From assembly GCA_902825995.1 (NCBI GenBank), contig CADEDE010000004.1:3977-67976 (forward strand): DNA of 64,000 nucleotides. Reading direction: 5' to 3'. The stretch's first letter is position 1, and every line of letters begins with the position of its first letter. Made by a program: the position numbers and the translations under genes. Source of the DNA: an uncultured Burkholderiales bacterium (GTDB lineage Bacteria > Pseudomonadota > Gammaproteobacteria > Burkholderiales > Burkholderiaceae_C). Positions 4,866-42,093 of the stretch are shown one piece after another. Under the pieces are notes generated by a model, which searched no databases, had not been told where the DNA came from, and saw only the letters and a program-made list of their open reading frames with translations.

Positions 4866-5731
4866 TGGCCCAGGACAGCGGCGTGACCCCGTTGCTCGAC
4901 GCCTTCTGGCGCGCCGCCGCGTATTGCCTGCACCCGCGGGTGATCCTGCTGTCGCTGGCGCCGCTGCTGCTGGCCGGCGGGCTGACGCTCGCACTGGGCT
5001 GGTTCTATTGGGAGCCCGCCGTGGCGGGCGTGCGAGCGACGCTCGAAGCCTGGTCGTCGCTCGAGGTGCTGCTGAAATGGCTCGAGTCGATCGGCCTCAA
5101 TGGCTTGCGCGCATTGATCGCGCCCCTGATCGTGCTCGCACTGGCGCTGCCGCTGATCGTCGTGCTGTCGCTGTTGGTGGTGGCCTTGTCGATGGCCCCG
5201 GCCCTGGTGTCGCTGGTCGCCCGACGGCGCTTTGCCGAGCTCGAAGCCAAACGCGGCGCGGCGCTGTGGCAATCGGTGTTGTGGTCGCTCGGCTGCACGC
5301 TGGTTGCCGTTATCGCCCTCGTGCTCAGCCTCCCGCTGTGGTTCGTGCCGCCGCTGATCTTGTTGATACCACCGCTGATCTGGGGCTGGCTGACCTGCCG
5401 CGTGATGGCCTTCGACGTGCTGGCAGAGCACGCCAGCGCCGACGAGCGGCGCACGATCCTGCGTGAGCAGCGCTGGCCACTGCTGGCCATCGGTGTGGTC
5501 TGCGGCTACCTCGGCGCTGCACCGACGCTGTTGTGGGCGGTGAGCGCGGCAACCCTGATTTTTGCGCCGCTGCTGGTGCTGATATCGGTGTGGCTCTATA
5601 CGTTGGTGTTTGCCTTCGCGGCGCTGTGGTTCGCCCATTTCGCGCTGGCGGCATTGCAGCGCCTGCGACAATCGACGATGCCGGTGCCACCGGCTCCTCT
5701 TCAACCCATCGAAATACTGCCTCTGTCATGA
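4865..5731 (+). CDS. EI24/CysZ-like polytopic inner-membrane protein
   Basis: 288 aa, 6-7 hydrophobic helices, high GC3. ATG overlaps the previous stop by 1 nt. The family assignment is from memory of similar annotations and is tentative. Confidence 0.6.
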   Translation: MAQDSGVTPLLDAFWRAAAYCLHPRVILLSLAPLLLAGGLTLALGWFYWEPAVAGVRATLEAWSSLEVLLKWLESIGLNGLRALIAPLIVLALALPLIVVLSLLVVALSMAPALVSLVARRRFAELEAKRGAALWQSVLWSLGCTLVAVIALVLSLPLWFVPPLILLIPPLIWGWLTCRVMAFDVLAEHASADERRTILREQRWPLLAIGVVCGYLGAAPTLLWAVSAATLIFAPLLVLISVWLYTLVFAFAALWFAHFALAALQRLRQSTMPVPPAPLQPIEILPLS

Positions 5732-5798
5732 CCAACCCCAAGCTCACTTCGTTCGCAGCCCCCCAAGGGGGCGTCAGCACGCTTGGGGCGGCCCGGCG
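5729..5798 (+). repeat. Family-1 GC-rich hairpin element, copy A (intergenic)
   Basis: TGACCAACCCCAAGCTCACTTCGTTCGCAGCCCCCCAAGGGGGCGTCAGCACGCTTGGGGCGGCCCGGCG. The 7-bp stem is CCCCAAG (5761-5767) paired with CTTGGGG (5782-5788). Its TGA is the stop codon of the upstream CDS. Confidence 0.85.
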
Positions 5799-5807
5799 CG
5801 TACTGGC

Positions 5808-6602
5808 ATGAACTTCGGCCTGATCATCGTCGGCGACGAAATCCTCTCCGGCAAACGCCAGGACCAGCACCTGCCCAAAGTCATCGAACTGCTCGGCGCT
5901 CGCGGCCTGTCGCTGGCCTGGGCGCGCTATGTCGGCGACGACCGCCGGCTCATCACCGAAGCCTTGCGCCACGCTTTCGCCAGCGGCGACGCGGTCTTCA
6001 GTTGCGGCGGCATCGGCGCCACGCCCGACGATCACACGCGCCAGTGCGCCGCGGCGGCGCTCGGTGTGGCGCTCGAATTGCATCCCGAGGCCAAGGCCCT
6101 GATCACGCAGCGCATGCAAGACCGGGCGGCGGAAAAGGGCCTGCCCTTCGATGCCGATGCGCCCGACAACATCCACCGTCTGAATATGGGTGTATTCCCG
6201 GCGGGCGCCTCGATCATCGCCAACCCGTACAACCAGATTCCCGGCTTTACGGTTGGCGAGGTGCATTTCGTGCCAGGCTTCCCGGTGATGGCGCACCCGA
6301 TGATCGAAACCGTGCTCGACACCCGCTACCGCGCGCTGCACGGTTCGCTGCGCGAGGCCGAATACTCGGTGATCGTCTATGGGTCGATCGAGGCCGCACT
6401 GACGCCGCTGATGGAAGCCGTCGAGCGCGACCACGCCGGCGTGCGCGTGTTCAGCCTGCCCAGCGTCGATCACCCGGTGCATGGGCGGCACATCGAGCTC
6501 GGCGTCAAGGGCGGCGAAACCTTGCTGCCTGCGGCCTATGCCGCGCTGCGCGCCGGGCTGGCCGCCCTGGGCGCGCAGACAGGCCCCGAACTGGTGCGCT
6601 GA
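5808..6602 (+). CDS. CinA-like competence/damage-inducible protein (MoCF-biosynthesis domain)
   Basis: [19 protein letters not shown] and [14 protein letters not shown] motifs are typical of the CinA N-terminal domain family. Confidence 0.75.
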
Positions 6603-6693
6603 AATACGAAGAACAGCCCAACGTTGGTGCTATTGAACGCCTCCATTTGGGGCATTCCGTCAGAGCGCACAATAGGCCATTGCGCACCGGCTG

Positions 6694-6711
6694 CGGGCAT
6701 GCTTTCTGCTA
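6694..6711 (+). promoter_or_regulatory. Candidate sigma-54 (-24/-12) promoter of glnA
   Basis: GG at 6696-6697 and GC at 6708-6709 are separated by exactly 10 nt (GGCATGCTTTCTGC), matching TGGCAC-N5-TTGC spacing. It lies ~45 nt upstream of the glnA ATG, and ntrBC is encoded downstream. Confidence 0.4.
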
Positions 6712-6754
6712 CATTCGCCTGCGCTTTTTTCACCCCCTCCCAGGAGAAGCCTTG

Positions 6755-8173
6755 ATGGCCAGTAAGAACGTCGCTGACGTGATGAAGATGGTGAAGGACA
6801 ACGAGATCAAGTTCGTTGATTTCCGTTTCACCGATACCCGCGGCAAAGAACAACACGTCACCGTGCCGGTATCGCACTTCGACGAAGACAAATTCAGTGC
6901 CGGCCACGCCTTCGACGGTTCGTCGATCGCCGGCTGGAAGGGCATCGAAGCCTCCGACATGCTGCTGATGCCCGACCCGGCCACGGCCAACGTCGACCCC
7001 TTCTTCGAAGAGCCGACCCTGTTGTTGACCTGCGATGTGCTCGAACCCGGCGATGGCAAGCCCTACGAGCGCGACCCGCGTTCGCTGGCCCGCCGCGCCG
7101 AGGCCTACCTGAAGAGCAGCGGCATCGGCGACGCCGCCTTCTTCGGGCCCGAGCCCGAATTCTTCGTCTTCGACAGCGTGCGCTGGAACGTCGATATGTC
7201 GGGCAGCTTCTCGAAGATCGAATCCGAAGAAGCGGCCTGGAACAGCGGCAAGGAATACGAGCACGGCAACTCAGGCTACCGCCCGGGTGTCAAGGGCGGT
7301 TATTTCCCGGTGCCGCCGGTCGACAGCTTCCAGGACATGCGCTCCGAAATGTGCCTGCTGCTCGAACAGCTCGGCGTGCCGGTCGAAGTGCACCACCATG
7401 AGGTTGCCACCGCCGGCCAGATGGAACTCGGCACCAAGTTCAGTACGCTGGTTCAGCGCGCCGACTGGCTGCAACTGCAGAAGTACGTGATCCACAACGT
7501 GGCCCACGCCTACGGCAAGACGGCGACCTTCATGCCCAAACCGATCGTCGGCGACAACGGCAGCGGCATGCATGTGCACCAGAGCGTGTGGAAAGACGGC
7601 AAGAACCTGTTCGCCGGCGACGGCTATGCGGGCCTGTCGGACTTTGCCCTGTACTACATCGGCGGCATCATCAAGCACGCCCGCGCGCTGAATGCCATCA
7701 CCAACCCCGGCACCAACAGCTACAAGCGCCTGGTGCCCGGTTTCGAGGCGCCTGTGAAGCTGGCGTATTCGTCGAAGAATCGCTCGGCCTCGATCCGTAT
7801 TCCGTACGTCGCCAACCCCAAGGGCCGCCGTATCGAGGCTCGCTTCCCGGATCCGCTGTGCAACCCCTACCTGGGCTTCTCGGCGCTGCTGATGGCCGGC
7901 CTGGACGGGGTGGAGAACAAAATCCACCCCGGCGAAGCGGCAACCAAAGACCTGTACCACCTGCCGCCCGAAGAAGACGCGAAGATCCCGACCGTCTGCC
8001 ACAGCCTGGACCAGGCCCTCGATTATCTGGACAAGGGCCGCGCCTTTCTGACCAAGGGCGGGGTCTTCACCGACAGTTATATCGACGCCTACATCGAGCT
8101 GAAGATGCAGGAGGTCACGCGTTTTCGCATGACCACCCACCCGCTCGAGTTCGACATGTACTACGCGGCCTGA
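6755..8173 (+). CDS. glnA: Glutamine synthetase type I
   Basis: 472 aa starting [27 protein letters not shown]. Contains GSGMHVHQS and NPYL, plus the adenylylation-loop region ([10 protein letters not shown]). AGGAGA RBS upstream. Confidence 0.97.
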
Positions 8174-8191
8174 CCCACGAATCGGTCACAC

Positions 8192-8221
8192 GGCAAGGGG
8201 CGGCGCATGCCGCCCCTTGCC
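8192..8221 (+). terminator. Stem-loop downstream of glnA
   Basis: GGCAAGGGGCGGC-GCAT-GCCGCCCCTTGCC: a perfect 13-bp stem beginning 19 nt after the glnA stop. No U-tract follows, which is common in high-GC genomes. Confidence 0.5.
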
Positions 8222-8246
8222 ACTTGTGCACCAGGCGTGGGCCACA

Positions 8247-17118: not shown

Positions 17119-17619
17119 TCAGCCGCCCCGGCGCACGCGGCGCAACTCGTCGGCGATCAGCAGGGCGGCGCCCAGCGTGATGGCGCTGTCGGCGAGGTTG
17201 AAGCTGGGGAAGTACCAGCCGCGCCAATGCAGCTGGATGAAATCCACCACATGGCCGTGCAGCAGGCGGTCAACGACATTGCCCAGGGCCCCGCCCATGA
17301 TCATCGTGACCGCGAAGCAGAACAGTTTCTGCGTCGGATGGCGGTGCAGCATCCAGGCGATGAAGCCGGCCGCGACGATGCCCAGCGCGACGAAGAACCA
17401 GCGCTGCCAGCCCGCCGCGCCGGCCAGGAACGAGAATGCCGCGCCGCTGTTGTGCACGCGCACGAGATTGAAGAACGAGGTCACATGGCGGCTGTCGCCG
17501 AGCTGGAAATAACCCAGGATCAGGGTCTTGGTGAACTGGTCGAGGACGATGACCAACAGCGCCAGGCCGAGCCAGAGGGCGAGGCCGGGAGCGCCGGAGG
17601 AAGAGCGGGCCGCGCTCAA
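17119..17619 (-). CDS. lspA: Lipoprotein signal peptidase (signal peptidase II)
   Basis: [14 protein letters not shown] and [15 protein letters not shown] motifs. Start proposed at TTG 17619, overlapping the ileS TGA and giving 166 aa. An upstream ATG at 17673 would overlap ileS by 58 nt. Confidence 0.85.
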
Positions 17620-20549
17620 GCGATGCTGCGGACTTCGCCCGCGCCGTAGAGGTTGCTTGTACAACGCCCGCAAAGGGCCGGGTGCGCGGCGTCATGGCCG
17701 ACGTCGCTGCGCCAGTGCCAGCAGCGTTCGCACTTGGCGGCGGATGACGGTGTCACGGTGATGACCAGTGCAGCGCCGCACCGCAGCCTCGCCTGCGAAG
17801 TGATCAACACGAACTTCAGGTCTTCGCCCAGCGTGGCCAGCAGTTCATGGTCGGCCTCGTTCAGCGTCAGTGTGACTTCGGCTTGCAATGACGAACCGAC
17901 GCTGCCTTCGCTGCGCACCGCCTCGATGGCCTTGTTGACCTCGTCGCGGATGGTGCGGATGCGCTGCCACTTGGCGAGCAGCGCCGCATCGGGTGCGTCG
18001 AAACGCCAGAAAGTTTCGGTGAAGATCGACGGCGACTGGCCCGGCGCAAGCACCGGCCAGGCCTCCTCGGCCGTGAACGACAGGAACGGCGCCATCCAGC
18101 GCAGCATCGCGTGCGTGATCTGCCACAGCGCCGTCTGCGCCGAGCGGCGGGCGAGCGATTTCGGCGCGGTGGTGTAGAGGCGATCCTTCAGCACGTCGAG
18201 GTAGAACGCGCCCAAATCTTCGCTGCAAAAGAGCTGTAGCTTGGCGACCACCGGGTGGAACTCGAAGCGCTCGTAGTGGGCCAGCATTTCGGCCTGCAAC
18301 TCGGCCGCGCGCGACAGGGCCCAGCGGTCGATCTCGAGCATGTCAGCCACGGGCACGGCGTCGCGCCCGGCGTCGAAGTCGGCGATATTGGCGAGCAGGA
18401 AGCGCAGCGTATTGCGGATGCGCCGGTAGCTGTCGACCACCCGGGCCAGGATCTTCTTGTCGATCGGCGGGTCGCCGGCATAGTCGGTCGAGGCGCACCA
18501 CAGGCGCGCCACCTCGGCGCCCGGATCCTTGGCGAACTCGCGGATTTCGATGATGTTGCCGAGCGACTTGCTCATCTTGCGGCCCTGGCCATCGACCGTA
18601 AAACCGTGTGTGAGCAGGCCGCGATACGGTGCATGGCCTTCGAGCGCGCAGCCCAGCAGCAGGGCCGAATGAAACCAACCGCGGTGCTGGTCGTGGCCTT
18701 CGAGGTAGAGATCGGCTTCAGGGCCGGTTCGGTGGTGCCCGTCGGGATGCGAGCCGCGCAGCACGTGGAAGAAGGTCGAGCCGGAGTCGAACCAGACTTC
18801 GAGGATGTCGCTGCCTTTCGTATAGTCCGCAGCGTCTTTGGCACCGAGGATTTCTTCCGCAGTCACGCGACTCCAGGCCTCGACGCCGCCCCGCTCGACG
18901 ATATCCGCAGCACGGTCGAGTATGGCCATCGTGTCCGGATGCAGTTCGCCCGAATCCTTGTGCAGGAAGAAGGGCAGCGGCACACCCCAGCTGCGCTGGC
19001 GGCTGATGCACCAGTCGGGCCGGTTGGCGATCATGTCGCGCAGGCGGGCCTGGCCGTTGTCGGGGAAGAACGCGGTGGCGTCGATCGCCTCGAGCGCCAT
19101 TGCACGCAAGGTGCGCGGCGCCTTGTCCTTGGTGAAGACGCCCGCCGTTGACACATTTGCTTCGTCCATGCGGATGAACCACTGCGCGGCGGCGCGGTAG
19201 ATCACCGGCGTCTTGTGGCGCCAGCAATGCGGGTAGCTGTGGGTGATGGGCGAGGTGGCAAACAGGCGCCCGGCCTCGCGCAGCGCTTCGATGACGACCG
19301 GCACCGCCTTCCAGATATTCAGCCCGCCGAACAGCGGGAAGTCGGGTGCGTAGCTGCCGTGGCCCTGCACCGGGTTCAGGATTTGATCGACCTGCATGCC
19401 ATGCGCGGTGCATGAGTGGAAGTCATCCACGCCATAGGCCGGCGACGCATGCACGATGCCGGTGCCGTCGTCGGCGGTGGCGTAGTCGGCCAGATAGACC
19501 GGCGCGAGGCGGTCGTAGCCGGCGTCTATGTGCGCAAGGGGGTGGCGGAACAGGATGCCGCCGAGCTTCTCGCCCCGGGTCGTTGCGACCACATGGCCCT
19601 GCAGAGCGTAACGCCCGAGACATTTCTCGACCAGCGATGCCGCGAGCACGAGCTGCCCGCGCTCGGTGTGCACCAAGGCGTAGTCGAGTTCGGGATGGAG
19701 GTTGAGTGCCTGGTTGGCGGGAATCGTCCACGCGGTGGTGGTCCAGATCAGCGCAAAGGTTTCACCGACGATTTCAGGCAGACCGAAGGCTGCGGCCAGC
19801 TTGTCGGGCTCGGCGCACAAAAAGCCGACATCGAGCGTCTGCGATTTCTTGTCGGCATATTCGATCTCGAATTCGGCCAGCGACGAGCCGCAATCGAAGC
19901 ACCAATAGACCGGCTTCAGGCCGCGATAGACGAAGCCGCGCTCGATCACGCGCTTCAGGGCCCGCAACTCGCCGGCCTCGTTGGCGAAATCCATCGTGCG
20001 GTACGCATGCTCCCAATCGCCGAGCACGCCCAGGCGCTGGAAATCGGCCTTCTGCTGCGCGATTTGTTGGCTGGCGTAGGCCCGGCTCCTGGCCTGCATC
20101 TCGTCGCGGCTGAGCTTGCGGCCATGCGCCTTCTCGATCGCATTTTCGATCGGCAAGCCGTGGCAGTCCCAGCCCGGCACATAGCGCGCATCGAAGCCCG
20201 CCAGTTGCTTGGACTTGACGACCATGTCCTTCAGGATCTTGTTCACCGCGTGGCCGATGTGCAGCACGCCGTTGGCATACGGCGGGCCGTCGTGCAGGAC
20301 GAACAGCGGCGCACCGTGGCGCGCGTCGCGCAGCTTCTTGTACAGGCCTTGTTCGTTCCAATCCGCGATCCAGCCCGGCTCGCGCCTGGGCAAATCGCCG
20401 CGCATCGGAAACGGGGTGTCGGGCAGGTTCAGCGTAGCGCGGTAGTCGGGCCGGCAACTGCCGCCGGGCCGCCCCAAGGCCGTTGCGCTCCCCTCGGGGG
20501 ACGACGCCGTAGGCGTCCTGGGGCGGTCATTTGATTTCGGTTCGGACAT
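17616..20549 (-). CDS. ileS: Isoleucine--tRNA ligase
   Basis: 977 aa with HIGH ([11 protein letters not shown]), KMSKS ([10 protein letters not shown]) and a C-terminal zinc-finger pair (CERCWHW...CGRC). The N-terminus carries ~30 extra residues that include repeat copy B. Confidence 0.95.
20461..20529 (-). repeat. Family-1 element, copy B (inside the ileS 5' coding region)
   Basis: Minus-strand read: TGACCGCCCCAGGACGCCTACGGCGTCGTCCCCCGAGGGGAGCGCAACGGCCTTGGGGCGGCCCGGCGG. Translated as [23 protein letters not shown]. Confidence 0.85.
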
Positions 20550-20716: not shown

Positions 20717-21547
20717 ATGCAAGCAACCATGCGGCAGATTCTACCGGTGGCCATCTGGATGCTGGCCGGGACGCCGTTGCCTGCGTGCGCGCAGGTGGAG
20801 GCTTCCCCGTCGCCGAGCGCGCGGCCGAACTTCGGAGGTGCGATCGGCCTGCAGTGGAGCAACGCGCCGCGGTACCAGGGCTCGAACTTGCGCGAAAACT
20901 CGTTGCAGCCGGGTATCTACCTGCGCTGGGGTCGTTTCTGGGTGGCCACGGCCGGCAATTTCGTGACCCGCCAGGACGGTGAGGTGCTGCGCGGTGTGGG
21001 TGCCGAACTGGTGCAGCGCGATGACCTGCGCGTGCGGCTCGGATTGCGCTTGGACCCCGGACGCAAGACCCGTGACAGCCCTGAACTCGCCGAACTCGAC
21101 GACATACGGCCGACGGTGCGCGCACGCCTGTCGGCGACCTGGCGTTTCAAGCCCGATTGGCAGTTGGGTACCGGATGGAGCACCGATGTGCTCGGCCGCC
21201 AGGGCGGGAGCCTGGTCGATCTGTCCATCTCGCACAGCATTCGCCTCAGCCAGCGCACGCATTGGTCGCTCGGCAGCAGCCTGTCCTGGGCCGACGAGCG
21301 CTACATGCTCGCCCGCTTCGGCATCAGCCCCGCGGCCGCTGCCCGCACGGGCCGGCCAGCCTATGAGCCAGGAGGCGGTTGGCGCGACGCCGCCCTGAAC
21401 ACGGAATTGCGCACCGACATCGATCGGCGCTGGTCAGTCTGGGCCGGTGCCAGCGTGAGTCGATTGCTTCGTCCGGCGCTGGCCAGTCCACTGACCCTGA
21501 AACCGACGCAAGTGGCGACCGGCGCAGGATTCGCCTGGCGATTCTGA
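20717..21547 (+). CDS. MipA/OmpV-family outer-membrane protein
   Basis: Signal peptide ending ACAQ, alternating beta-strand pattern and a terminal aromatic residue (FAWRF). Confidence 0.8.
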   Translation: MQATMRQILPVAIWMLAGTPLPACAQVEASPSPSARPNFGGAIGLQWSNAPRYQGSNLRENSLQPGIYLRWGRFWVATAGNFVTRQDGEVLRGVGAELVQRDDLRVRLGLRLDPGRKTRDSPELAELDDIRPTVRARLSATWRFKPDWQLGTGWSTDVLGRQGGSLVDLSISHSIRLSQRTHWSLGSSLSWADERYMLARFGISPAAAARTGRPAYEPGGGWRDAALNTELRTDIDRRWSVWAGASVSRLLRPALASPLTLKPTQVATGAGFAWRF

Positions 21548-21567: not shown

Positions 21568-22542
21568 TCAGGCGCGTCCCGGCTCGGCAAACCAGGCGCG
21601 CGCATCGGCACTGTCCTGCGCAATGCCTTCGCGCAAAGACGCCAAGCACGCGTAGATGCGCTCGTCGTGCAATTTGTGCAGCAGTTCGACCTTGACCACG
21701 TGACCGTAGGCACCATCGCGGCCGAGTTCGCCTGGCCAGTCCAGGCAATGCACCTCGAGCAGGATGCGCCCACTGGCATCGACCGTCGGCCGCCGGCCCA
21801 GGCTGGCGACGCCGGGCAAAGCTTGCGCAGCCAGGCCATGCGTGCGGGCCACAAAGATGCCCATCGCCGCGGGCGGATGGGGCAGGCGCAGGTTGAGGGT
21901 CGGGAAGCCCAGCTCGCGCCCGAGCCGGGCACCGTGCTGGACATGGCCGCTGATACTGTAGGGGCGGCCCAGCAGGGCCGCGGCGCGGACCATATCGCCG
22001 TTGGCCAAGGCCTCGCGCACGGTCGAACTCGATACGCGCTGACCATGCACTTCATAGCTTTGCATGCGCGCCACGTCGAAGCCGAGTGCGTCGCCGGCAG
22101 CGTCGAGCATGGCGTAGTCGCCGGCCCGCCTGGCGCCAAAGCGGAAGTCGTCGCCCACCAGCACGTAGCGCACGCCGAGGCCGCGCAGCAACACTTGCTC
22201 AATGAAGGCCTGCGGCGTCAACGCCGCCAAGCGTTCATCGAAGCGCAGCAGCACCGCCTGCTCGATACCGCAGCGTTCGAGTTCGGCGAACTTGTCGCGC
22301 AGCGTTGCGATGCGCGCCGGGGCGTCGGCAGAGCGACCCGCGGACCTGGCCCGGGCAGCGAAGAAATCGCGCGGATGCGGCTCGAAGGTCAGCACACAGG
22401 ATGGCAGGCCGCGGTGGCGGGCTTCGTTGATCAGCAAGGCCAGCATGGCCTGGTGGCCGCGGTGGACACCGTCGAAGCTGCCGATCGTGGCAGCGCAGGC
22501 CGGCGCCAGATCAGGATGGTGGAAACCGCGCAGGACTCGCAT
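21568..22542 (-). CDS. ribF: Bifunctional riboflavin kinase / FMN adenylyltransferase
   Basis: 324 aa (IGSFDGVHRGH, FEPHP, GFPTLNL, EVHCLD). ribF-ileS-lspA is conserved synteny. Confidence 0.93.
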   Translation of the reverse strand: MRVLRGFHHPDLAPACAATIGSFDGVHRGHQAMLALLINEARHRGLPSCVLTFEPHPRDFFAARARSAGRSADAPARIATLRDKFAELERCGIEQAVLLRFDERLAALTPQAFIEQVLLRGLGVRYVLVGDDFRFGARRAGDYAMLDAAGDALGFDVARMQSYEVHGQRVSSSTVREALANGDMVRAAALLGRPYSISGHVQHGARLGRELGFPTLNLRLPHPPAAMGIFVARTHGLAAQALPGVASLGRRPTVDASGRILLEVHCLDWPGELGRDGAYGHVVKVELLHKLHDERIYACLASLREGIAQDSADARAWFAEPGRA

Positions 22543-22600
22543 GAGCGCGATTATTGCGGCGCTGCCGGCGCCGCAGCGCTGAAACTCGCCGCTTCAGTCG

Positions 22601-22679
22601 GCGCTGGGCCGCTCCCGAGCCGACCGAGCGCCCCCTCGGGGGGGGCAGCCAGCCAAGCCAGCGTGGGGGCGGACATTCA
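22601..22679 (-). repeat. Family-1 element, copy C1 (intergenic hisA-ribF)
   Basis: Minus-strand read: TGAATGTCCGCCCCCACGCTGGCTTGGCTGGCTGCCCCCCCCGAGGGGGCGCTCGGTCGGCTCGGGAGCGGCCCAGCGC. The stem CCCGAG/CTCGGG is fully Watson-Crick. Confidence 0.8.
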
Positions 22680-22685
22680 GGCCAG

Positions 22686-22761
22686 CGCCGGGCCGCCCCA
22701 AGCGGCCTGAGTGCCCCCTCGGGGGGCAGCGAGCGCAGCGAGCGTGGGAGCGGATATTTCA
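22686..22761 (-). repeat. Family-1 element, copy C2 (its TGA is the hisA stop codon)
   Basis: Minus-strand read: TGAAATATCCGCTCCCACGCTCGCTGCGCTCGCTGCCCCCCGAGGGGGCACTCAGGCCGCTTGGGGCGGCCCGGCG. It lies 6 nt from copy C1. Confidence 0.85.
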
Positions 22762-23502
22762 GGCCTCGGCCAGTTGGTCGGCGCGCTGCTGGGCCGCCGC
22801 GAAATCGAGCGCGCCGGTGTAGATCGCACGTCCGCAGATCACGCCGTCAACGCCCTCGCCTTGGATCGCGCACAGGCGCTCGATATCGGCCATGCCGGCC
22901 AACCCGCCCGAGGCGATCACCGGGATCGTCAGCGCCTGCGCCAGCTTCAAGGTGGCCTCGATATTGATGCCGGTGAGCATGCCGTCGCGGCCGATATCGG
23001 TATAGATCACGCCTTCGACGCCGTAGTCCTCGAATTTCCTGGCCAGGTCGATGACCTCGTGCCCGGTGAGCTTGCTCCAGCCATCGGTGGCCACCTTGCC
23101 GTCCCTGGCGTCGAGGCCAACGATGATGTGGCCGCCGAAGGCGGTGCAGGCGTCGCGCAGAAAACCGGGGTTCTTGACCGCGGCGGTGCCGATGATGACG
23201 TAGCTCAAGCCGTCGTCGAGGTAGCGTTCGATGGTGTCGAGGTCGCGCAGACCGCCGCCGATCTGCACCGGAATTTGATCCCCCACCGCACGAACGATGG
23301 CCTTGACCGCCGACTCGTTGACCGGCTTGCCGGCAAAGGCGCCATTCAGATCCACCAGGTGCAGGCGCCGCGCACCGGCGGCGAGCCAGCGCCGCGCCAT
23401 CGCCGCGGGATCTTCGCCGAAGGTGGTGGCGGCTTTCATGTCGCCCTGTTCGAGGCGCACGCAGTGGCCGTCCTTGAGGTCGATCGCGGGTATCAGCAGC
23501 AT
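22759..23502 (-). CDS. hisA: ProFAR isomerase (1-(5-phosphoribosyl)-5-[(5-phosphoribosylamino)methylideneamino]imidazole-4-carboxamide isomerase)
   Basis: 247 aa ([30 protein letters not shown]). Confidence 0.95.
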
Positions 23503-24785: not shown

Positions 24786-25862
24786 CTAGAGGCTCTCTTT
24801 CAGGGCATCGATCATCAGCGCATTTTCCTCGGGAGTGCCCACCGTCAGGCGCAGGCAGTTGGCCAGCAGCGGGTGCAGCGCCTCGACATTCTTCACCAGC
24901 ACGCCGCGCTGTTTCATGCCGGCGAAGGCGCGCTTGGCGTCGGGCACGCGCACGAGGATCATGTTGGCTTCGCTGGGATAGTGTTTTACGCCGGGCAGCG
25001 CCTGGAGCAGCGCTTGCAGGCGATCGCGCTCGCTGCGGATTACCGCCGCCTGGCGCGCGTACTCGTCGGCATGTTCGAGCGCGAACAGCGCCGCCTCGCA
25101 GTTCAGCACGCTGACGTTGAACGGCGGACGCAGCTTGTCGAGCTCGGCGATCAATTCGCGCCGGCCGATCAGGTAGCCGATACGCACGCCAGCCAGGCCG
25201 AATTTGCTCATCGTGCGCATCAGCAACACATGCGCGTGGCGTTGCAATCGCGCCAGCGAGTCGCGCGCGGCAAAGGGCTGGTAAGCCTCGTCCATCACCA
25301 CCAGGCCCGGCGCGGCCTCGATGATCGCGTCGATGGCCGCGTCGTCCCACAGATTGGCCGTGGGGTTGTTCGGATAGGCCAGATAGACGATCGCCGGGCG
25401 GTGCTCGCGCACGGCGGCCAGCATGGCGGGCAGGTCGAGCTCGAAATCCGGCGTCGTCGGCACACCGACGAATTTCAGGCCCTGCAATTGAGCCGCCATC
25501 GCATACATCACGAAGCCCGGCAGCGGCGCGAGCACCGTGGCGCCGGACACATCGCAGGCCAGCGCCAGCAGCGAAATCAGCTCGTCGGAGCCGTTGCCGA
25601 GCATGATTTCGTTGCCCTCGGGCATCCGCGCATGGCGGGCCAATGCGGCGCGCAAGACATCGCTGCGCTCGGCCGGGTAGCGGTTGAGCGCCACCTCGCC
25701 CAGGCGTTCGCCCAGGGCCTTGCGCAGCGGCGCCGGCAGCGCGAACGGGTTTTCCATCGTATCGAGCTTGACCATGCCCGCGCTGGGTTGCACGGCATAG
25801 GCGTGCATGGCCTGGACATCCTGGCGCAGCACGCGCGCCATGCGTTCGGCCAGCAGGCTCAT
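24786..25862 (-). CDS. hisC: Histidinol-phosphate aminotransferase
   Basis: 358 aa from ATG 25862 (MSLLAERMARVLRQDV) with MSKFGLAGVRIGY carrying the PLP lysine. The ATG overlaps the vapC TGA (ATGA). Confidence 0.93.
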   Translation of the reverse strand: MSLLAERMARVLRQDVQAMHAYAVQPSAGMVKLDTMENPFALPAPLRKALGERLGEVALNRYPAERSDVLRAALARHARMPEGNEIMLGNGSDELISLLALACDVSGATVLAPLPGFVMYAMAAQLQGLKFVGVPTTPDFELDLPAMLAAVREHRPAIVYLAYPNNPTANLWDDAAIDAIIEAAPGLVVMDEAYQPFAARDSLARLQRHAHVLLMRTMSKFGLAGVRIGYLIGRRELIAELDKLRPPFNVSVLNCEAALFALEHADEYARQAAVIRSERDRLQALLQALPGVKHYPSEANMILVRVPDAKRAFAGMKQRGVLVKNVEALHPLLANCLRLTVGTPEENALMIDALKESL

Positions 25863-26308
25863 TCCGAAAGCCCGATCTGCTGCGGCGTGGACTTGAAAGG
25901 GTTCACGATATCGACGCCGTCGATCTGCTGGCCGTGCTGCAGGTCTTCGCTGAGCAGGTGGCCGCAGCCCTGCTGCTGCGCGGCGGCAACGATCAGCGCA
26001 TCCCAATAGTTCAGATCGAAGCGGCTCTCGATGGCCCAGGCCGATTCCACCGTCGCGTGATCGATCGCCCACGGCTGCCAATGCTGGTAGCGGCGCACCT
26101 CGGCGCGTGCATCGCCGGCCGCGATCGCGTTGCTGAACTTCTTGCGCGCGTTGCTATAGAACTCGTTCAGAACCTGGGTGCTGATGCGCCCGCACTGGTG
26201 CTGCCAGCAATAGGCCACCCAGGCCCGTGCACCGGCTTGCTTGGCGGGCTCGCGCGGATCGAAGCAATACAGCAGCACATTGGTATCGACGAAGACCGTA
26301 CGGCTCAC
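25859..26308 (-). CDS. vapC: PIN-domain ribonuclease toxin (VapC-like)
   Basis: 149 aa with the acidic PIN quartet in context (FVDTNVLLY, VLNEF, YWDALIVAAA, LLSEDLQHG). The start overlaps the antitoxin stop by 4 nt. Confidence 0.85.
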   Translation of the reverse strand: MSRTVFVDTNVLLYCFDPREPAKQAGARAWVAYCWQHQCGRISTQVLNEFYSNARKKFSNAIAAGDARAEVRRYQHWQPWAIDHATVESAWAIESRFDLNYWDALIVAAAQQQGCGHLLSEDLQHGQQIDGVDIVNPFKSTPQQIGLSE

Positions 26309-26538
26309 CGCGCACCCCGCGTGTACATCTCGTCGCGCGTGAGGTAGCGCCCTTTGCTGGGCCCCCAGCTCTTGAACTCCAGGGCCTCGCGCATGGCGCG
26401 CTCGTAGGCATCGTTGCGGTGCATCTTTTCAGCCACCAGTTCGCCGACCAGGCGCGACACGCTGGTATTGCGCCGCGCGGCTTCCATGCGCGCCCAGTCG
26501 GCGGCGCCGTCTTCCATCGTGATAGTCACGTTTTTCAT
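26305..26538 (-). CDS. vapB: Antitoxin partner of VapC (ribbon-helix-helix-like)
   Basis: 77 aa. MKNVTITMEDGAADWARMEAARRNTSVSRLVGELV fits a beta-strand followed by helix-helix. It lies immediately upstream of, and overlapping, the PIN gene. Confidence 0.75.
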   Translation of the reverse strand: MKNVTITMEDGAADWARMEAARRNTSVSRLVGELVAEKMHRNDAYERAMREALEFKSWGPSKGRYLTRDEMYTRGAR

Positions 26539-26605: not shown

Positions 26606-28389
26606 TCAACCCGTCAATGGCAACACCATCTCGCGCTCGCCGTCATTCACCTTGCCGGTGTAGGCAAACCCAAAGCCTTCGTAGAAAGCCCCCACCGGGT
26701 TCTCGGGCAGGTGCGACAAAGCAATCTGTGCCACGCCCATGCGCCTGGCCTCGCCGATCAACCAGCGCATCGCCGCCTGGCCGTGGCCTTGGCGCTGGTA
26801 ACGCGCATCGATCATCAGGCGCCAGATATAGAGCTGGTCGGCCGGCTCGTCGGGATCGCGGCGCGCATCCCAGAGCAACAGGAAGCCGACGGGCTCGCCG
26901 TTCGAGTACAGGCCCATCGGCCGGCCGGCCGGCTTGTACGCGGCCTGCGCGAGGGACTTTGCATTCGTCGCGACGAAACGCGCCTGCTCGGGCGTGATGC
27001 TCAGCGCGATGAGTGAGTCGACATCGGCGTCGCGCACCGGCCGCACTTCAAAGTGCGGCGGCGCCGCGGCTACCGGCACCGCGCCGAGCCGCATTTCGGC
27101 CGCGCGCGCGTGGGCTTGCAGGCCCTCGCCATAGGCCAGTTCGGCGGCAATCGGACCCAGCGTATTGGCGCCCGCCGCGCTCACCTCGATCAGGCTCGTG
27201 CGCTTTTGAAAGTCATATACGCCCAGCGGCGATGAGAAGCGCGCCGTGCCCGAGGTCGGCAGCACGTGGTTCGGGCCGGCGCAATAGTCGCCCAGGCTTT
27301 CGCTGGTGTAGGCCCCGAGAAAAATCGCGCCGGCATGCTTGAGCAGCGGCTCCCAGCGCTGCGGCTCGGCACTCGACACTTCGAGATGCTCGGGCGCGAT
27401 GCGGTTGCTAAGCGTGCAAGCTTCTTCCATCGAGCGCGTGAGGATCAGCGCGCCGCGGCCTTCGAGCGAGGCGCGGATGATTCCTTCGCGCGGCAGCGTC
27501 GGCAACAGCCGTTCGATGGACTCGCGCACCGCGTCGAGATAGGCTGCATCGGGGCACAGCAGCAGGCTCTGCGCCAGTTCATCGTGCTCGGCCTGCGAAA
27601 ACAAATCCATCGCCACCCAGTCGGGTGGCGTCGTGCCATCGGCAATGACGAGGATTTCGCTGGGGCCGGCGATCATGTCGATGCCGACCTGGCCGAAGAC
27701 ATGCTTCTTCGCGCTGGCCACATAGGCGTTGCCGGGGCCGGTGACCTTGTCCACGCGCGGGATCGTTGCCGTGCCATAGGCCAGCGCGGCGATCGCCTGC
27801 GCGCCGCCGATCGTGAAGGCGCGCGTGATACCGGCCACATGCGCGGCGGCGAGCACGAGGGCATTCTTCTCGCCGCGCGGCGTCGGCACGACCATCACGA
27901 TCTCGCCCACGCCCGCCACTTGAGCTGGCACCGCATTCATCAACAGGCTCGACGGGTACGCCGCCTTGCCGCCCGGCACATAGATGCCCACGCGATCCAG
28001 CGGCGTGACCTTCTGGCCAAGCAGGCTGCCGTCTTCGTCGCGGTAGCGCCACGATCGGCCGCAGGCATCGAGCTGGCGCTCGTGGTAGTTGCGGATTCGC
28101 GCGGCCGCCGCTTGCAGGGCATCGCGCTGCGCGGGGGTGATCGAGCCAAAAGCCGCGCGCATTTCGTCGCGCGTGAGCGTCAGCGCCGCCATCGACGCGG
28201 CCGCCAATGCATCGAAGCGCGCAGTGCACTCGAGCACGGCGGCATCGCCGCGGGTGCGCACGTCGGCGAGGATTTGGACCACGCGCGATTCGATCTCACC
28301 GTCGGCCTGCGCCGACCAATGCCGCAGGCGCGCGAATTCGGCCTCGAAATCGGCGTTGCGGGTGTCGAGGCGGCGCAGCTTCATTTGGC

Positions 28390-28393
<4 letters not shown>
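26606..28393 (-). CDS. hisD: Histidinol dehydrogenase fused to a C-terminal GNAT acetyltransferase domain
   Basis: 595 aa. Residues 1-~436 are HisD ([15 protein letters not shown], ending [10 protein letters not shown]). An 11-aa linker ([11 protein letters not shown]) is followed by a 148-aa GNAT fold ([29 protein letters not shown]). The reading frame is continuous with no stop. Confidence 0.85.
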
Positions 28394-30760
<2,367 letters not shown>

Positions 30761-31434: not shown

Positions 31435-33510
31435 ATGCGCTTTCGCCAGCACGAGCGCACGGCCCGGCAATCCACGCTGCGCCTGCTGGCCCTGTTTGCG
31501 CTGGTCGTCCTTGGCCTGCTGGTCGCTGTCAATGCGGTATTGGCGCTGATCTACTGGGCAACATTTCCATTCGCACGCGGCTTCCCGACGCTTTTCTTCG
31601 AGACCAACAGTGCGCTGGTGCTGTTGTTCGTGCTGGGTGGTTGCTGGGTCGAGTCGATGCGCCTGCGCGAGGGCGGCGCGCATGTCGCGCGCCTGGCCGG
31701 CGGGCGCGCGGCGCAGCTGTCCAGTGGCGGCGAACTGGGCCTGCTGGAACGGCGCTTCACCAACATCGTGCAGGAAATGAGCCTGGCCAGCGGCTATCCC
31801 GGCTGGCCGCCCGCCTGGGTGCTGCCCAAGGACGATGCGATCAACGCCTTCGCCGCCGGCTGGGGTGCAGACGACGCGGTGGTCGCCGTCACGCGCGGCG
31901 CACTCGAGCGCCTGACGCGCGCCGAGTTGCAGGGTGTCGTCGCGCACGAGTTCAGCCATCTGGTGCATGGCGATACGCGCCTGAATATGCGCCTGATCGG
32001 CCTGGTCTGGGGCCTGCAGATGATCTGGGGCCTGGGCCTCTCGCTGTGGGAGCCCGACGAGCAGGGCCGCCGCGGCGTCGGCAGCCTGTTCGGCCTGGGC
32101 CTGATGGCGGTCGGCTCGTTGGGCTGGGCCGCGGGGCGCCTGTTGCAGGCCGCGGTGAGCCGGCAGCGCGAATTCCTGGCCGATGCCTCGGCGGTGAAAT
32201 ATACGCGCGTCGTGGATGGCCTGGGCGGCGCGCTGCGCAAGATCGCCGACCAGCAACTGCAGGGCCGCGCCGGGCTGCAAAGCGCGCATACCACGAGCCT
32301 GGCGCACCTGCTCTTGAGCGCCCCCGGACCTGCCGCTTCGCGTCAGCCCCCCCGAGGGGGTCAAGGAAACTTGGGAGCGGCCCGGCGTTTCCTCGAGAGC
32401 GATCGCGGTGCGGGCGCCGGCTGGCGGGCGCTGTGGCACACGCACCCGCCCTTGGCTGAGCGGCTGCGCCGCTTGTACGGGCGCGAAATGTTGCCGCTGG
32501 CGGCGCCGGTGCTCGCGGTCGGTGCTGACGCCATCGAACCGCCGATGCGTCTGGCACCAGGCCCGTTAGCGCACGCCCGCGGGCCCACCGGCGCGAGCCA
32601 GCCCAGCGGCGCGAGCCCCGACGCCGAGCGCCACGACGCGCTGCAAAACCCGGCTTCCTTCGACGCACGGGCGCGCGAACAAGAGGCCCTGGCCCGCATC
32701 GAACATTGGCACGGTCCCGGCGAATGGCAGGCCGCGATGCTCGCGCTGGCACTCGATTTCGATGCACCCGAGGCCACGCTGCGCTGGCTCGAATGGCGCA
32801 ACGCCACCGCCGATCTCGGCGTGGCCGCATCAGTGCAGCGCGAGATCGAGGCCCTCGGCGCCAACGCGCGGCGGCAGGTCTTCACGACGCTGATGCACCG
32901 GGCGCGCAGCGCAACGCCCACGCAACGCCGCATCTTGCGGCTCGCGCTGCGGCAGCGCTGGTCGGCGCTGCCGCCGTCAGCGGCCACGCAATGGCGCGCA
33001 CTCGGGCTTGGGTTGCTGCTGAGCGCCCCCGGACCTGCCGCTTCGCGTCAGGCCCCCCGAGGGGGTCAAGGAAACTTGGGAGCGGCCCGGCGTTTCCTCG
33101 AGAGCGACAAGCGTCGGCCCCTCACGCGTGCCGACACGGCCGCATCACTGGCGCTGCACTCCGATCCCGCGCACGCCGCCACCGGGCTGCTCGCGCGCGC
33201 CCTGGGCGCTACGCCCGCTGCGGCCCAGGCCTGGCACAACGCAGCCACACAGGCGCTGGCCGAACTCGGCGCCGCCGCGCCGCGCGGCCCTGCCGCGGGC
33301 CTGGCGCCGGCCACGCGGCCGCGAAACCTTCATCTTGCCTTGCGCGTGCGCCGCATCGCGCCGATGCAGCGGCCGCTGCTGTTGCGGGCTTGGCTGGGCG
33401 CCGCCGAGCGCGGCGGCCTGTTCAGCCACGCCGGCACCGGCGATGCGCTGCACCTGGCCTGCCTGCTGCTCGAGGTGCCGGTGCCCGAGAGCCTGGTGCC
33501 CAGGCCCTGA
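31435..33510 (+). CDS. M48-family zinc metallopeptidase with a long C-terminal extension
   Basis: 691 aa with N-terminal TM helices, HEFSHLVHGD (HExxH), REFLADASA and THPPLAERLRRL. Adjacent to lemA. Contains two in-frame repeat copies. Confidence 0.8.
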   Translation: MRFRQHERTARQSTLRLLALFALVVLGLLVAVNAVLALIYWATFPFARGFPTLFFETNSALVLLFVLGGCWVESMRLREGGAHVARLAGGRAAQLSSGGELGLLERRFTNIVQEMSLASGYPGWPPAWVLPKDDAINAFAAGWGADDAVVAVTRGALERLTRAELQGVVAHEFSHLVHGDTRLNMRLIGLVWGLQMIWGLGLSLWEPDEQGRRGVGSLFGLGLMAVGSLGWAAGRLLQAAVSRQREFLADASAVKYTRVVDGLGGALRKIADQQLQGRAGLQSAHTTSLAHLLLSAPGPAASRQPPRGGQGNLGAARRFLESDRGAGAGWRALWHTHPPLAERLRRLYGREMLPLAAPVLAVGADAIEPPMRLAPGPLAHARGPTGASQPSGASPDAERHDALQNPASFDARAREQEALARIEHWHGPGEWQAAMLALALDFDAPEATLRWLEWRNATADLGVAASVQREIEALGANARRQVFTTLMHRARSATPTQRRILRLALRQRWSALPPSAATQWRALGLGLLLSAPGPAASRQAPRGGQGNLGAARRFLESDKRRPLTRADTAASLALHSDPAHAATGLLARALGATPAAAQAWHNAATQALAELGAAAPRGPAAGLAPATRPRNLHLALRVRRIAPMQRPLLLRAWLGAAERGGLFSHAGTGDALHLACLLLEVPVPESLVPRP
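32315..32387 (+). repeat. Family-1 element, copy D1 (in frame inside the M48 peptidase gene)
   Basis: TGAGCGCCCCCGGACCTGCCGCTTCGCGTCAGCCCCCCCGAGGGGGTCAAGGAAACTTGGGAGCGGCCCGGCG. Translated within LLLSAPGPAASRQPPRGGQGNLGAARRFLESD. Confidence 0.85.
33020..33092 (+). repeat. Family-1 element, copy D2 (in frame inside the M48 peptidase gene)
   Basis: Near-identical to D1: about 3 mismatches over the ~96 bp shared block 33013-33108 versus 32308-32403. Confidence 0.85.
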
Positions 33511-33556
33511 GCGCACTCAGTGCGAAGGCCCGATCCGCAATGACCGCAGGTTCGCA

Positions 33557-34318
33557 TCAACTCCTGATCTTGTAGCCCGTGGCGAGCAGGCGCAACGCAA
33601 TCGCCGACACCATGATAAAGCTGGCGCCGACCACCCCCAGACTCAGCCACGGCGAGACGTCGCTGGCGCCGAAAAAGCCGCGCCGAAAACCGTCGATCAT
33701 GTAGAAAAACGGGTTCAGGTGCGACAGGCCCTGCCAGAAGCCGGGCAGCGAATGAACCGAATAAAACACGCCCGACAAAAAAGTCATCGGCATGATCAGG
33801 AAATTCTGGAACGCCGCCGTCTGGTCGAACTTCTCGGCCCACAGCCCCGAAATCAGGCCCAGGGTGCCGAGCATGCCGGCCCCGAGCACGGCAAACACGA
33901 CGATCCACCACGGCTCGGCAAATTGTGCCGGCGCAAACCACACCGTGACCGCGAACACGCCCACGCCCACCGCCAGCCCGCGCACCACGCTCGCGCCGAC
34001 ATAGGCCGCGAACCAGGCCCAGTGCGACAAGGGCGAGACCAGCAGAAATACCAGGTTGCCGCTGATCTTGCTCTGGATCAGCGAGCTGCTGGTGTTGGCG
34101 TAGGCGTTCTGCAGCACGCTCATCATCACCAGGCCCGGGATCAGGAAGCTGGTGTAGCCCACGCCAGGGAAGACCTGCACATGGGCTTCGAGCACATGGC
34201 CGAAGATCAGCAGGTAGAGCACGGCGGTGAGCACCGGCGCCGCGACAGTCTGCACGCTGACCTTCCAGAAGCGCAGGATTTCCTTGTTGAACAAGGTGCG
34301 CGCGCCAGCGAGGTTCAT
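33557..34318 (-). CDS. ABC-2 type transporter permease
   Basis: 253 aa from ATG 34318 (MNLAGARTLFNKEILRFWK) with six TM helices. The start overlaps the ATPase stop. Confidence 0.85.
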   Translation of the reverse strand: MNLAGARTLFNKEILRFWKVSVQTVAAPVLTAVLYLLIFGHVLEAHVQVFPGVGYTSFLIPGLVMMSVLQNAYANTSSSLIQSKISGNLVFLLVSPLSHWAWFAAYVGASVVRGLAVGVGVFAVTVWFAPAQFAEPWWIVVFAVLGAGMLGTLGLISGLWAEKFDQTAAFQNFLIMPMTFLSGVFYSVHSLPGFWQGLSHLNPFFYMIDGFRRGFFGASDVSPWLSLGVVGASFIMVSAIALRLLATGYKIRS

Positions 34319-40200: not shown

Positions 40201-40329
40201 CGACAGATCGGGCAGCGCATCGATCGGTGTGCTGCGCAGGCTGACGACACCCCACACCGCGATGAAGACGCTGGCCAGCAGCACCAGGAAGCGATTCGCC
40301 ACCGACCAGTGGATCAGGCGCGCGATCAT
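37201..40329 (-). CDS. cusA: Heavy-metal efflux RND pump, CusA/CzcA family
   Basis: 1042 aa starting [18 protein letters not shown]. 12-TM HME-RND architecture. The start overlaps the cusB stop. Confidence 0.93.
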
Positions 40330-41864
40330 CGCGTCGCTCCGCTGGCGGCGGCCGGTGCGGCCCGGGTCAGCACATAGTCGTCACCCTGCTTCGCAAAACC
40401 GAAGTCGATGACCTGGCCCTTCTTCAGGCCTTTGGCGAGCGACTTGTCGGCGAGCTTGAACGGCATCGTCATCGCCGGCCACTTCAGCGCCGGCACGGCC
40501 TCATGCTCGAGCGTGATGCTGTCGGCCGCGATCTCGACGACGGTGCCGCGGGTGCCATAGCCGGCCGCGGCCGACGTCGGCGGCGTCGAGGCTGCCGCCG
40601 CGGCTGCAACCGCCGGCGCCGCAGCGCGCGCCAGCACGCCCTGCAGGCTGGCTTCCGAGTCGATCAGGAACTGGCCCGAGGCGACGACCTGCTGGCCTGC
40701 ACTCAGGCCGCTGCGGATGACGATGCGCTCACCGGCCTGCTCGCCGAGCTCGACCTCGACCGGGCGGTAGCGCCCGGGCGCCTCCGACAGATAGACCAGG
40801 CTGCGCCTGCCGGTGCGGATGACGGCCTCGGCCGGCACCACCAGTGCGGGCCGCTGCGCGCCTTGCAGGCTGACCTGCGCGAACAGGCCGGCCTTCAGGC
40901 GCTGCTTCGGGTTCGGCAGCTCGATGCGCAGGCGCAGCGTTCGCGTCTCGCGGTTGCCCTCGGGCAGGATCGCCGCGACGCGGCCCTTGACCACTTCACC
41001 CGGCAGCGCCGGAAAGCGGGCCTCGACCACTTGCCCCGGCTGGATCACCGCCGCCTGCGCCTCGGGCAGCGCCGCTTCGAGCCACACCGTGCCCAGGCCG
41101 TTGATGCGTGCCAGCGTCATGCCCGGCGCGACGGTCATGCCGGCGCGCACCATCAGCTCGCTGATCACGCCGCCGGCCGGGGCGCCGATGGTCTGCACCG
41201 CCACCGGTTGACCCGAGCGCTCGACGCGGTCGATCATCGCCGCGGGCAGGCCCAGCAGCACCAGGCGCTGGCGCGCGGCCTGTGCCAGCGCGGCGTCGCC
41301 GGTGGCCCTGACCGCCAGATATTCCTGCTGCGCGCCGAGCCACTCCGGGTTCAACACATCGACCAGCGGCGCGCCGGCCGCCACCACATCGCCCGGCGCG
41401 CGCGCATAGACACGCTCGACGAAGCCGGCGCTGCGCGCCTGCACGATGCTGACATCGCGCTCATTGAGCTGCACCGTGCCGACGGCCTCGACCGCCGCGC
41501 CAATGGCCTGCATCTGGACCGTGGCCAGACGCAAGCCGAGCGCCTGCCGGGCCTGTGCCGAAACGGCCAGTGCCGGCGTCGCATCGCCTGGGGCGGCTTC
41601 GGCCTGGCCTTCGTCGGCGTAGCGCGGGACCAGTTGCATATCCATGAACGGCGACTTACCGGGCTTGTCGAACTTCTGCGTCGGCGACATCGGGTCGTAC
41701 CAATACAGAACCTTGCGCTCGGCCGATGCCGCCGCCGCGGGCGCCTGCACTGCGCCGCCGCTGGCGCCGTGCTGCGCGGCGCCGCGCCAAGAGGCGATGC
41801 CCCAGCCGGCGGCGATGCCGATGGCCAGTGCGATCGAGGCGAAAGTGAGTTGCTTGGTGATCAT
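40326..41864 (-). CDS. cusB: Efflux RND periplasmic adaptor fused to a C-terminal CusF-like Cu(I)/Ag(I) binding domain
   Basis: 512 aa from ATG 41864 ([16 protein letters not shown]). The adaptor core starts with [26 protein letters not shown]. The C-terminal ~90 aa ([32 protein letters not shown]...VIDFGF) match the CusF WPxMTMxF signature. Confidence 0.88.
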
Positions 41865-42004
41865 GTCAGTTGCTCCAATGCGCTTTGCGCGACCCACGAT
41901 GCGAGGGACGCGAGGTCGTTCCAAGCAACCGCAGCGGATCCGGCTCTGCCGGTCCGCCAGCGTGCCTTGCGGGCCGCATGGCCGCGAGATGCGGCCATTC
42001 CTCG

Positions 42005-42093
42005 GCCCGTCCAAGCCGACGCAGGTCGGCTCGGAGCCGCGGGCCTTGGCCCCCTTGAGGGGGAGCGGCGAAGCCGCTTCGGGGGTGGTCTCA
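42005..42093 (-). repeat. Family-1-related element, copy F (cusC-cusB intergenic, divergent and longer)
   Basis: Minus-strand read: TGAGACCACCCCCGAAGCGGCTTCGCCGCTCCCCCTCAAGGGGGCCAAGGCCCGCGGCTCCGAGCCGACCTGCGTCGGCTTGGACGGGCCGAG. It keeps the TGA start, C-tract, CCCC..AAGGGGG core and CTTGG..GGCC end, but carries an extra internal hairpin. Confidence 0.55.

Follow-up and report, generated by a model that had tools for sequence, protein, structure and literature searches.

Copies of the repeat element BRE in a Burkholderiales genome: covarying hairpins at sites that would leave translation uninterrupted

We analyzed a stretch of 64,000 nt (64 kb, 67.7% G+C overall; "the window" in what follows) from contig CADEDE010000004.1 of an uncultured Burkholderiales bacterium, in which a GC-rich hairpin element is repeated. 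Judged by their sequence, these repeats are copies of a named family, the Beta-proteobacterial repeat element (BRE), and we consider it probable that BRE is a mobile or recently mobile, non-autonomous and translation-compatible repeat, persisting where translation is not interrupted. The whole window was scanned, filters off, with a covariance model (R1) of 116 copies, and its genes were called with a codon-usage model and checked with Pfam. Results showed exactly seven strong matches (39-70 bits, E <= 4e-6), with no further BRE copy on either strand of the window and no opposite-strand copies. These seven, and one partial relative, are the following.

BRE copy 1, 5729-5811, + strand: R1 69.7 bits; preceded by a CysZ/EI24-family gene (4862-5731) and followed by a MoCF-domain gene (5808-6602), both assigned with Pfam.
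BRE copy 2, 20449-20529, - strand: R1 51.3 bits; in the N-terminal tail of ileS (open reading frame, ORF, 17616-20549).
BRE copy 3, 22589-22670, - strand: R1 39.2 bits; unit 2 of a tandem pair, upstream of ribF (21568-22542).
BRE copy 4, 22672-22761 (R1 22672-22756), - strand: R1 61.3 bits; unit 1 of the tandem pair.
BRE copy 5, 29025-29105 (R1 29022-29105), - strand: R1 66.6 bits; at the murA-like/hisG junction.
BRE copy 6, 32315-32400, + strand: R1 56 bits; in the M48 metalloprotease gene 31435-33510.
BRE copy 7, 33020-33105, + strand: strong R1 match; in the same M48 gene as copy 6.
Partial or hybrid BRE relative, 42007-42091, - strand: R1 14.1 bits, E = 0.37; after an OEP-family gene.

The initial annotation of this DNA had claimed eight copies of a repeated GC-rich hairpin family, some of them inside host genes. 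All eight stretches were found where it had placed them, and the core CCCCCRAGGGGG occurs eight times at up to 1 mismatch, against 1.06 occurrences expected from shuffles. The family itself is borne out by the seven R1 matches and by hairpins that covary, and copies do lie inside ileS, hisG and the M48 gene. The eighth stretch (42005-42093) did not hold as a copy, its score being at the level of random matches: it shares with BRE only the 5' half (the 5' block, the first hairpin, the CCCCC..GGGGG hairpin and CCCCTCAAGGGGG), and its 3' half is different. We also noticed that this hybrid element, at 42000-42093 (-), joins its BRE-like 5' half to an unrelated and very stable hairpin (GGCCCG...AGCCGAC-CTGC-GTCGGCT...CGGGCC, fold z = -2.98); it follows a gene for an outer-membrane efflux protein and may represent a terminator or a second repeat family.

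The name BRE comes from Hot et al. 2011 (BMC Genomics 12:207; PMC3110155), who found the ~90 bp element via the small RNA locus bprJ. Two B. pertussis BREs published there (supplement list S1), once reverse-complemented, match the window copies block for block, and across the same alignment, which also takes in loci of Bordetella, Achromobacter, Castellaniella and Polaromonas, little or no variation is seen in the 5' C-run, CCCCCCRAGGGGG and GG.CGGCCCG. The likeness extends to the blocks CCCCCACGC..., CTGCCCCCCRAGGGGGC and CTTGGG.CGGCCCG.CG, to the size (75-91 bp), to the host range (Bordetella, Polaromonas, Acidovorax, Delftia, Rhodoferax, Azoarcus), and to sites that are intergenic, overlap ORF ends or lie in coding sequence, with tandem arrays and an orientation independent of replication. 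The Bordetella copies differ in having A/T-run P3 stems and a loop 1-2 nt shorter, and nothing excludes membership. The initial annotation had matched the element to no named family, a view that the match to BRE overturns; such a match is one of the outcomes that it had itself set against its proposal.

According to the 2011 description (PMC3110155), BRE occurs in Bordetella, Polaromonas (29 copies), Delftia, Acidovorax, Rhodoferax, Verminephrobacter and Azoarcus, with 1-29 copies per genome at >70% identity; it is mostly intergenic, some copies overlapping ORF ends and some being "entirely within coding sequences", often in tandem in variable number, and its orientation is independent of the replication fork. 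The initial annotation, by comparison, had projected hundreds of copies per genome. That paper contains no analysis of secondary structure or covariation, no observation of relay ORFs or ATGA junctions, no empty-site evidence and no function. A later paper found the abundance of bprJ altered in an RNase III mutant, and in the literature searched no second paper uses the name BRE. In the window, Rfam gave 0 matches at gathering thresholds, with only sub-threshold chance matches (E <= 10) around the tandem pair, and ARAGORN gave 0 tRNA- or tmRNA-like genes. A T-run of the kind found in intrinsic terminators follows 0/7 of the bona fide window copies; the published copies from Bordetella have A/T runs next to them.

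A BRE unit is a non-coding repeat ~75-90 nt long; it has ~75-80% G+C and forms three covarying hairpins with invariant blocks. The layout was read from an alignment of ~140 copies, mostly from other genomes. It begins at the 5' end with the C-run block CCCCCACGC, followed by a variable hairpin (P2), then by the conserved hairpin CTG-CCCCCC-RAG-GGGGG-C and by a variable arm X of 8-12 nt; in the 3' part, the P3 stem (X:X') closes a near-invariant loop of 17-18 nt, CTTGGG(G/A/AG)CGGCCCGGCG, whose 17-nt form is CTTGGGGCGGCCCGGCG. The arm X', complementary to X, was missing from the coordinates of the initial annotation, whose 3' boundary fell ~10 nt short: the 8-10 nt that follow GGCCCGGCG are the pairing partner of the variable stretch ahead of CTTGGGG.

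The pairing of the two arms is specific to each copy. The mean X:X' duplex energy was -11.9 kcal/mol for a copy's own arms versus -6.6 kcal/mol across copies, with 119 distinct X in 142 copies, and the specificity holds when solo copies are re-tested (p = 3e-29). In the 116-sequence alignment, 86.9% of cells pair versus 41-56% when the partners are slid, and the covariation score is 0.306 versus 0.107, a value reached by 0/500 shuffles; in each of the 7 P3 and 5 P2 pairs, both partners have changed. Folding energy is uninformative by itself, because single-sequence folds of 7/8 copies were no more stable than shuffles (z -1.5 to +0.7). RNAalifold on the eight raw copies recovered the central hairpin only, the outer stems becoming clear only with ~130 copies from other genomes. 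We rejected the idea that the 5' flank or target serves as a template for X, own and cross duplex energies being alike (p = 0.11).

We also observed a loop variant, CTCGGG...CCCAGCG, in which T3->C and G14->A (alignment columns 73 and 85) occur together in 6/6 cases from different genera (L029, L039, L041, L093, L102 and the window copy at 22601, that is copy 3, where CTCGGG..CCCAGCG lies at 22602-22619). This is a U.G to C.A type of co-variation, which could reflect a local pair or a co-evolving protein contact. For a pseudoknot between the 5' C-run and the G-run of the loop, the positions involved are invariant, and the T-to-C loop variant is uncompensated in the 5' block.

The insertion sites within the window are evidence for the reading of BRE as a translation-compatible insert. 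Four of the seven copies lie in coding sequence and are predicted to be translated in frame, at the N-terminus of ileS, at codon 2 of hisG and twice in the M48 gene. These inserts measure 81 (ileS), 78 (hisG), 81 and 81 nt (M48) and are absent from relatives; read from the sequence, BRE thus enters coding sequence as a multiple of 3 nt and would then be read through. From its ATG at 20549, ileS reads MSEPKSN followed by a 27-aa insert (81 nt, copy 2), which would place the copy in the protein and not in a 5' untranslated region. A duplication is seen at the insert junctions in the frame reading, 17 N-termini of IleRS homologues do not have the 27 aa, and solved IleRS structures align from residue 35.

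At the murA-like/hisG junction, copy 5 is a 78-nt insert (counting one TGA repeat; the boundary is ambiguous by this 3-nt repeat) into an ATGA overlap, for which locus L121 has the empty site GGCCGGA-TGA-TCACG, also with the ATGA overlap. The upstream murA-like gene (29103-30371) retains its TGA and hisG (28390-29106) gains 26 codons after Met1, homology to HisG beginning at residue 28. In the M48 protein, copy 6 sits between the REFLAD and HTHPPL motifs and adds SAPGPAASRQPPRGGQGNLGAARRFLE; copies 6 and 7 are 97% identical over 94 nt, each has GAGCG at both junctions, and both inserts are absent from 9 homologues (61-81% identity) and from the DNA of L120 and L121. The tandem pair of copies 4 and 3 follows a His_biosynth gene (22759-23502, stop TGA 22761-22759) and precedes ribF, and across it (22589-22761) we saw no relay ORF that begins with a canonical start codon.

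Relatives have empty sites, and the insertions are polymorphic. The syntenic L121 (~85% nucleotide identity) is without BRE across an interval where the window has three, and scanning L120 and L121 with R1 revealed no BRE, which is direct evidence for a presence/absence polymorphism. The junction duplications seen in the window are TGA, GAC, CATGA and, twice, GAGCG; in some other loci they are 6-8 nt long. In-frame placement recalls the Rickettsia palindromic elements (RPE), reportedly described by Ogata et al. in 2000, a work that PMC2267715 cites, as in-frame inserts in protein genes, including essential ones, that are translated as extra peptide segments. RPE and BRE are alike as palindromic repeats placed in frame in coding genes and read as extra peptide (in BRE, as predicted); they differ in sequence, size and host, and BRE is chiefly intergenic or junctional.

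Copy 1, which fills the spacer between the CysZ/EI24 and MoCF genes, illustrates the second kind of site. A relay ORF of 27 codons, 5728-5811 (+), runs through it; the ORF starts at an ATG overlapping the TGA of the upstream gene and stops at a TGA overlapping the ATG of the downstream gene, so that ATGA stands at both ends, within CATGA at both junctions, 80 nt apart. For other genomes, we searched one genome of each species for an exact pattern derived from the conserved 3' region, which gave at least 119 stretches; the family-wide counts that follow cover the 119 listed loci from other Burkholderiales, where genes were called with a home-made codon-usage caller. Comparing co-directional spacers of 55-135 nt with and without BRE, we found an ATGA...ATGA relay ORF in 17/49 BRE spacers versus 6/98 others (Fisher p = 1.7e-5), and by orientation in 10/18 antisense and 7/31 sense BRE spacers. 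Any form of bridging, be it overlap, near-adjacent stop or in-frame fusion, was seen in 39/49 versus 29/98 (p = 9e-9). In these layouts a short relay ORF spans BRE at coupled junctions in either orientation, and the ATGA coupling would be duplicated rather than destroyed. Avoidance of stop codons by selection was rejected as an explanation, composition accounting for the open frames (88.4% versus 86.1% in dinucleotide shuffles).

The closest parallel in layout is with the mycobacterial interspersed repetitive units (MIRU), reportedly described by Supply et al. in 1997. MIRUs are described as co-oriented with the flanking genes, and the BRE relay layout occurs in both orientations. Both are short operon repeats with an internal ORF coupled at -4 nt (ATGA) to a neighbor, with little effect on expression and with tandem behavior of the variable-number type; the MIRUs belong to another phylum and are likened here by layout, not by sequence, and the three-hairpin structure is conserved in BRE. 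The MIRU-like arrangement, a repeat ORF coupled by a -4 stop/start overlap, was found at copy 1 and in the 17/49 spacers. MIRUs insert at start codons, which gives an internal ORF coupled at -4 spacing (review PMC12548453).

Two further claims of the initial annotation concerned orientation and the TGA with which each copy was said to begin. The at least 119 stretches span Comamonadaceae, Alcaligenaceae (Bordetella, Achromobacter, Pigmentiphaga, Castellaniella), Burkholderia, Roseateles/Rubrivivax-type genera, Rhodocyclales and Thiobacillus, and merging the nhmmer matches in the listed loci gave 148 independent sites, 24 of which are arrays of 2-4 units. Co-orientation with the local genes holds for every copy in the window. 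As a trait of the family, strict co-orientation failed: between co-directional genes there were 52 sense versus 35 antisense sites (p = 0.086), an earlier per-copy count having given 54 versus 35. The antisense cases are not artefacts of gene calling, because many of these copies have exact ATGA overlaps with both neighbors on the gene strand. Orientation goes with subfamily, a 3' arm ending in ...CTGA marking sense copies and one ending in ...CTCAT (the reverse complement of ATGAG) marking antisense copies. In three pairs of loci (L079/L096, L078/L109 and L083/L105) an orthologous spacer holds BREs of different subfamilies in opposite orientations between genomes, which suggests repeated independent insertion at the same permissive or targeted junctions. 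We also noticed that L017, a metagenome-assembled genome of Ottowia sp., has at least 8 BRE matches and several 5'-half matches in 8 kb (694-7499), with long tandem arrays at ~84-nt spacing (~4170-4930 and 5900-6490), far denser than in the window.

As for the leading TGA, the triplet is present in 8/8 stretches, but it serves as an actual stop codon at just three places, 5729, 22761 and 29105. At 20529, 32315 and 33020 (the ileS copy and both M48 copies) it is out of frame inside the gene, at 22679 it sits in the linker of the tandem pair, and at 42093 the gene ends instead with a TAA that lies 1 nt upstream (42095-42097). Family-wide it depends on context: 37/45 sense operon copies have a TGA no more than 11 nt from the 5' C-run, against a background of 10%, and the same is true of 0/11 antisense and 4/14 sense copies inside a called ORF (ORF calls that are unverified). 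The TGA is thus largely the stop codon of the upstream gene, context and not an intrinsic motif.

Strict co-orientation had been taken to suggest selection at the RNA level, and BRE could in principle be a cis-acting RNA element selected in the transcribed strand, as an mRNA stabilizer, an RNase III/E site or a modulator of translation. The three covarying hairpins and the sense orientation of every window copy fit such a role, as do the ~80-nt RNA, BprJ1, that one B. pertussis BRE yields, the shift of bprJ level when RNase III is mutated, and the P3 3' strand that in some copies holds the GGAG and start region of the downstream gene. We nevertheless regard it as unlikely: 35/87 informative sites are antisense to the flanking genes, 4/7 window copies are within coding sequence, individual folds are no more stable than shuffles, and BprJ1 comes from the '>' strand while its flanking genes BP3395 and BP3396 are on '<'. 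Moreover, the G.T versus A.C stem mismatches (21/22 in sense and 35/13 in antisense copies) do not flip with orientation, that is, they do not follow the transcribed strand, which speaks against the proposed mRNA-level selection. Recruitment by the host as a translational-coupling device, in which the relay ORF and a start-hiding P3 stem set the expression ratio of the neighbors, would explain the strong enrichment of ATGA...ATGA relay ORFs in both orientations, and the same arrangement has been discussed for MIRUs (PMC12548453). The layout is, however, equally expected if selection purges insertions that break coupling, 10/49 spacers are unbridged, many copies lie in coding sequences, convergent or divergent spacers and tandem arrays where coupling is impossible, and relatives manage without the copies; we therefore give this role little credence.

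Mobilization as a REP/REPIN-type element, by a RAYT (Y1/HUH) transposase acting on single-stranded hairpins, appears improbable. BRE resembles REP/BIME/REPIN-RAYT, ERIC and NEMIS/Correia repeats in being a high-copy, GC-rich or palindromic intergenic repeat that clusters in tandem and may share a transcript with genes. On one strand of the element, G.T also slightly outnumbers A.C in either gene orientation (87 versus 55), which would fit a strand-specific single-stranded DNA intermediate. Unlike those repeats, BRE lacks a conserved 5' tetranucleotide of the GTAG type, forms no inverted doublets, has no terminal inverted repeats accompanied by a fixed TA duplication and came with no transposase that we could find. 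Instead of a 20-40 nt palindrome or an inverted REP doublet, each unit measures ~80 nt and comprises three distinct hairpins and a conserved loop of 17 nt; a weak probe found no RAYT-like ORF in the window or the 119 loci. In addition, BRE does not follow the direction of replication, because its orientation switches within the 64-kb window, in agreement with Hot et al. (PMC3110155). By the criteria for a classical MITE (miniature inverted-repeat transposable element), the conserved ends do not form a pair of inverted repeats and the junction duplications vary in length. That the repeat encodes a functional peptide or protein module is scarcely credible, although ORFs run through most copies and four window copies are part of predicted proteins. 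Different copies are read in different frames, with all three sense frames and also antisense frames in use, so that no peptide is conserved; seven representative BRE-encoded peptides had no match in Pfam, and conservation is at the level of nucleotides and base pairs. The heterogeneity of frame effectively refutes this idea already.

For BRE as a mobile, translation-compatible repeat, the following course of events can be proposed. Insertion would take place at or near TGA-containing sites, leaving direct duplications of 3-5 bp or using microhomology; the conserved loop and the hairpins would be recognized by a trans-acting enzyme, probably on one DNA strand; and survival of the copies would be filtered by translational compatibility. 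The leading TGA and the co-orientation seen in the window would then follow, as by-products, from the places at which copies survive and from the sense-type subfamilies present here, and would not be signs of an mRNA-level function. As a more tentative extension, which we hold possible rather than expected, BRE might be an order-wide and still active "translation-neutral" mobile element, MIRU-like and RPE-like at once, that enters TGA/ATGA sites leaving 3-5 bp duplications, has sense and antisense subfamilies with their own start and stop signals, and is copied by a possibly host-encoded enzyme recognizing the 17-nt loop; its mobilization would be neither RAYT/REP nor classical MITE, and undescribed.

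Several points weigh against mobility. We found no mobilizing gene: tblastn with the E. coli RAYT gave a best E of 0.3 in the window and 121 loci, a weak test, and hidden Markov models of the half-elements, used to look for an autonomous parent (two halves around an ORF), found none, by a method that is too insensitive. The junction duplications vary (3-5 nt, longer in some loci), and only the TGA at hisG is backed by a DNA-level empty site. A host function would likewise be compatible with block conservation throughout the order in combination with covarying stems. Open frames in all six readings are explained by base composition alone, and the counts for the listed loci depend on the home-made gene caller.

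Beyond BRE, we observed other features around the same genes. On the - strand, 26612-27090, ~470 nt absent from L121 lie directly at the 3' end of hisD, whose frame stays open to give a 595-codon ORF (26606-28393); by eye this extension resembles a GNAT-type acetyltransferase domain and would represent a hisD-GNAT fusion or a tightly adjacent gene. The histidine operon contains, between its hisD (histidinol dehydrogenase) and hisC-like (aminotransferase) genes, a PIN-domain gene with a ~77-aa partner (25859-26538, -), a toxin-antitoxin-like pair that is kept in L121 (869-1548). The ribF and ileS genes are adjacent in many bacteria; here a MipA-family gene (20747-21547, +) stands between them on the opposite strand. 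Finally, a 401-aa gene without a Pfam match lies between the M48 and ABC-2 transporter genes of L121 (7945-9150), where the window has only 60 nt (33497-33557).

In conclusion, the find itself is not new, BRE having been named in 2011, and the relay ORFs, in-frame inserts and covariation add to what was described in 2011 without making BRE a new kind of element. What is added here is a three-hairpin structure backed by covariation, direct evidence of recent insertion, including predicted in-frame insertion in ileS, hisG and a conserved protease, and the ATGA...ATGA relay layout, which in both orientations would preserve translational coupling. For the annotation of these genomes, this means that gene callers will misplace start codons or fuse ORFs at BRE sites, and that BRE-encoded segments rich in Pro, Gly, Ala and Arg will show as unexplained insertions in alignments of Burkholderiales proteins.

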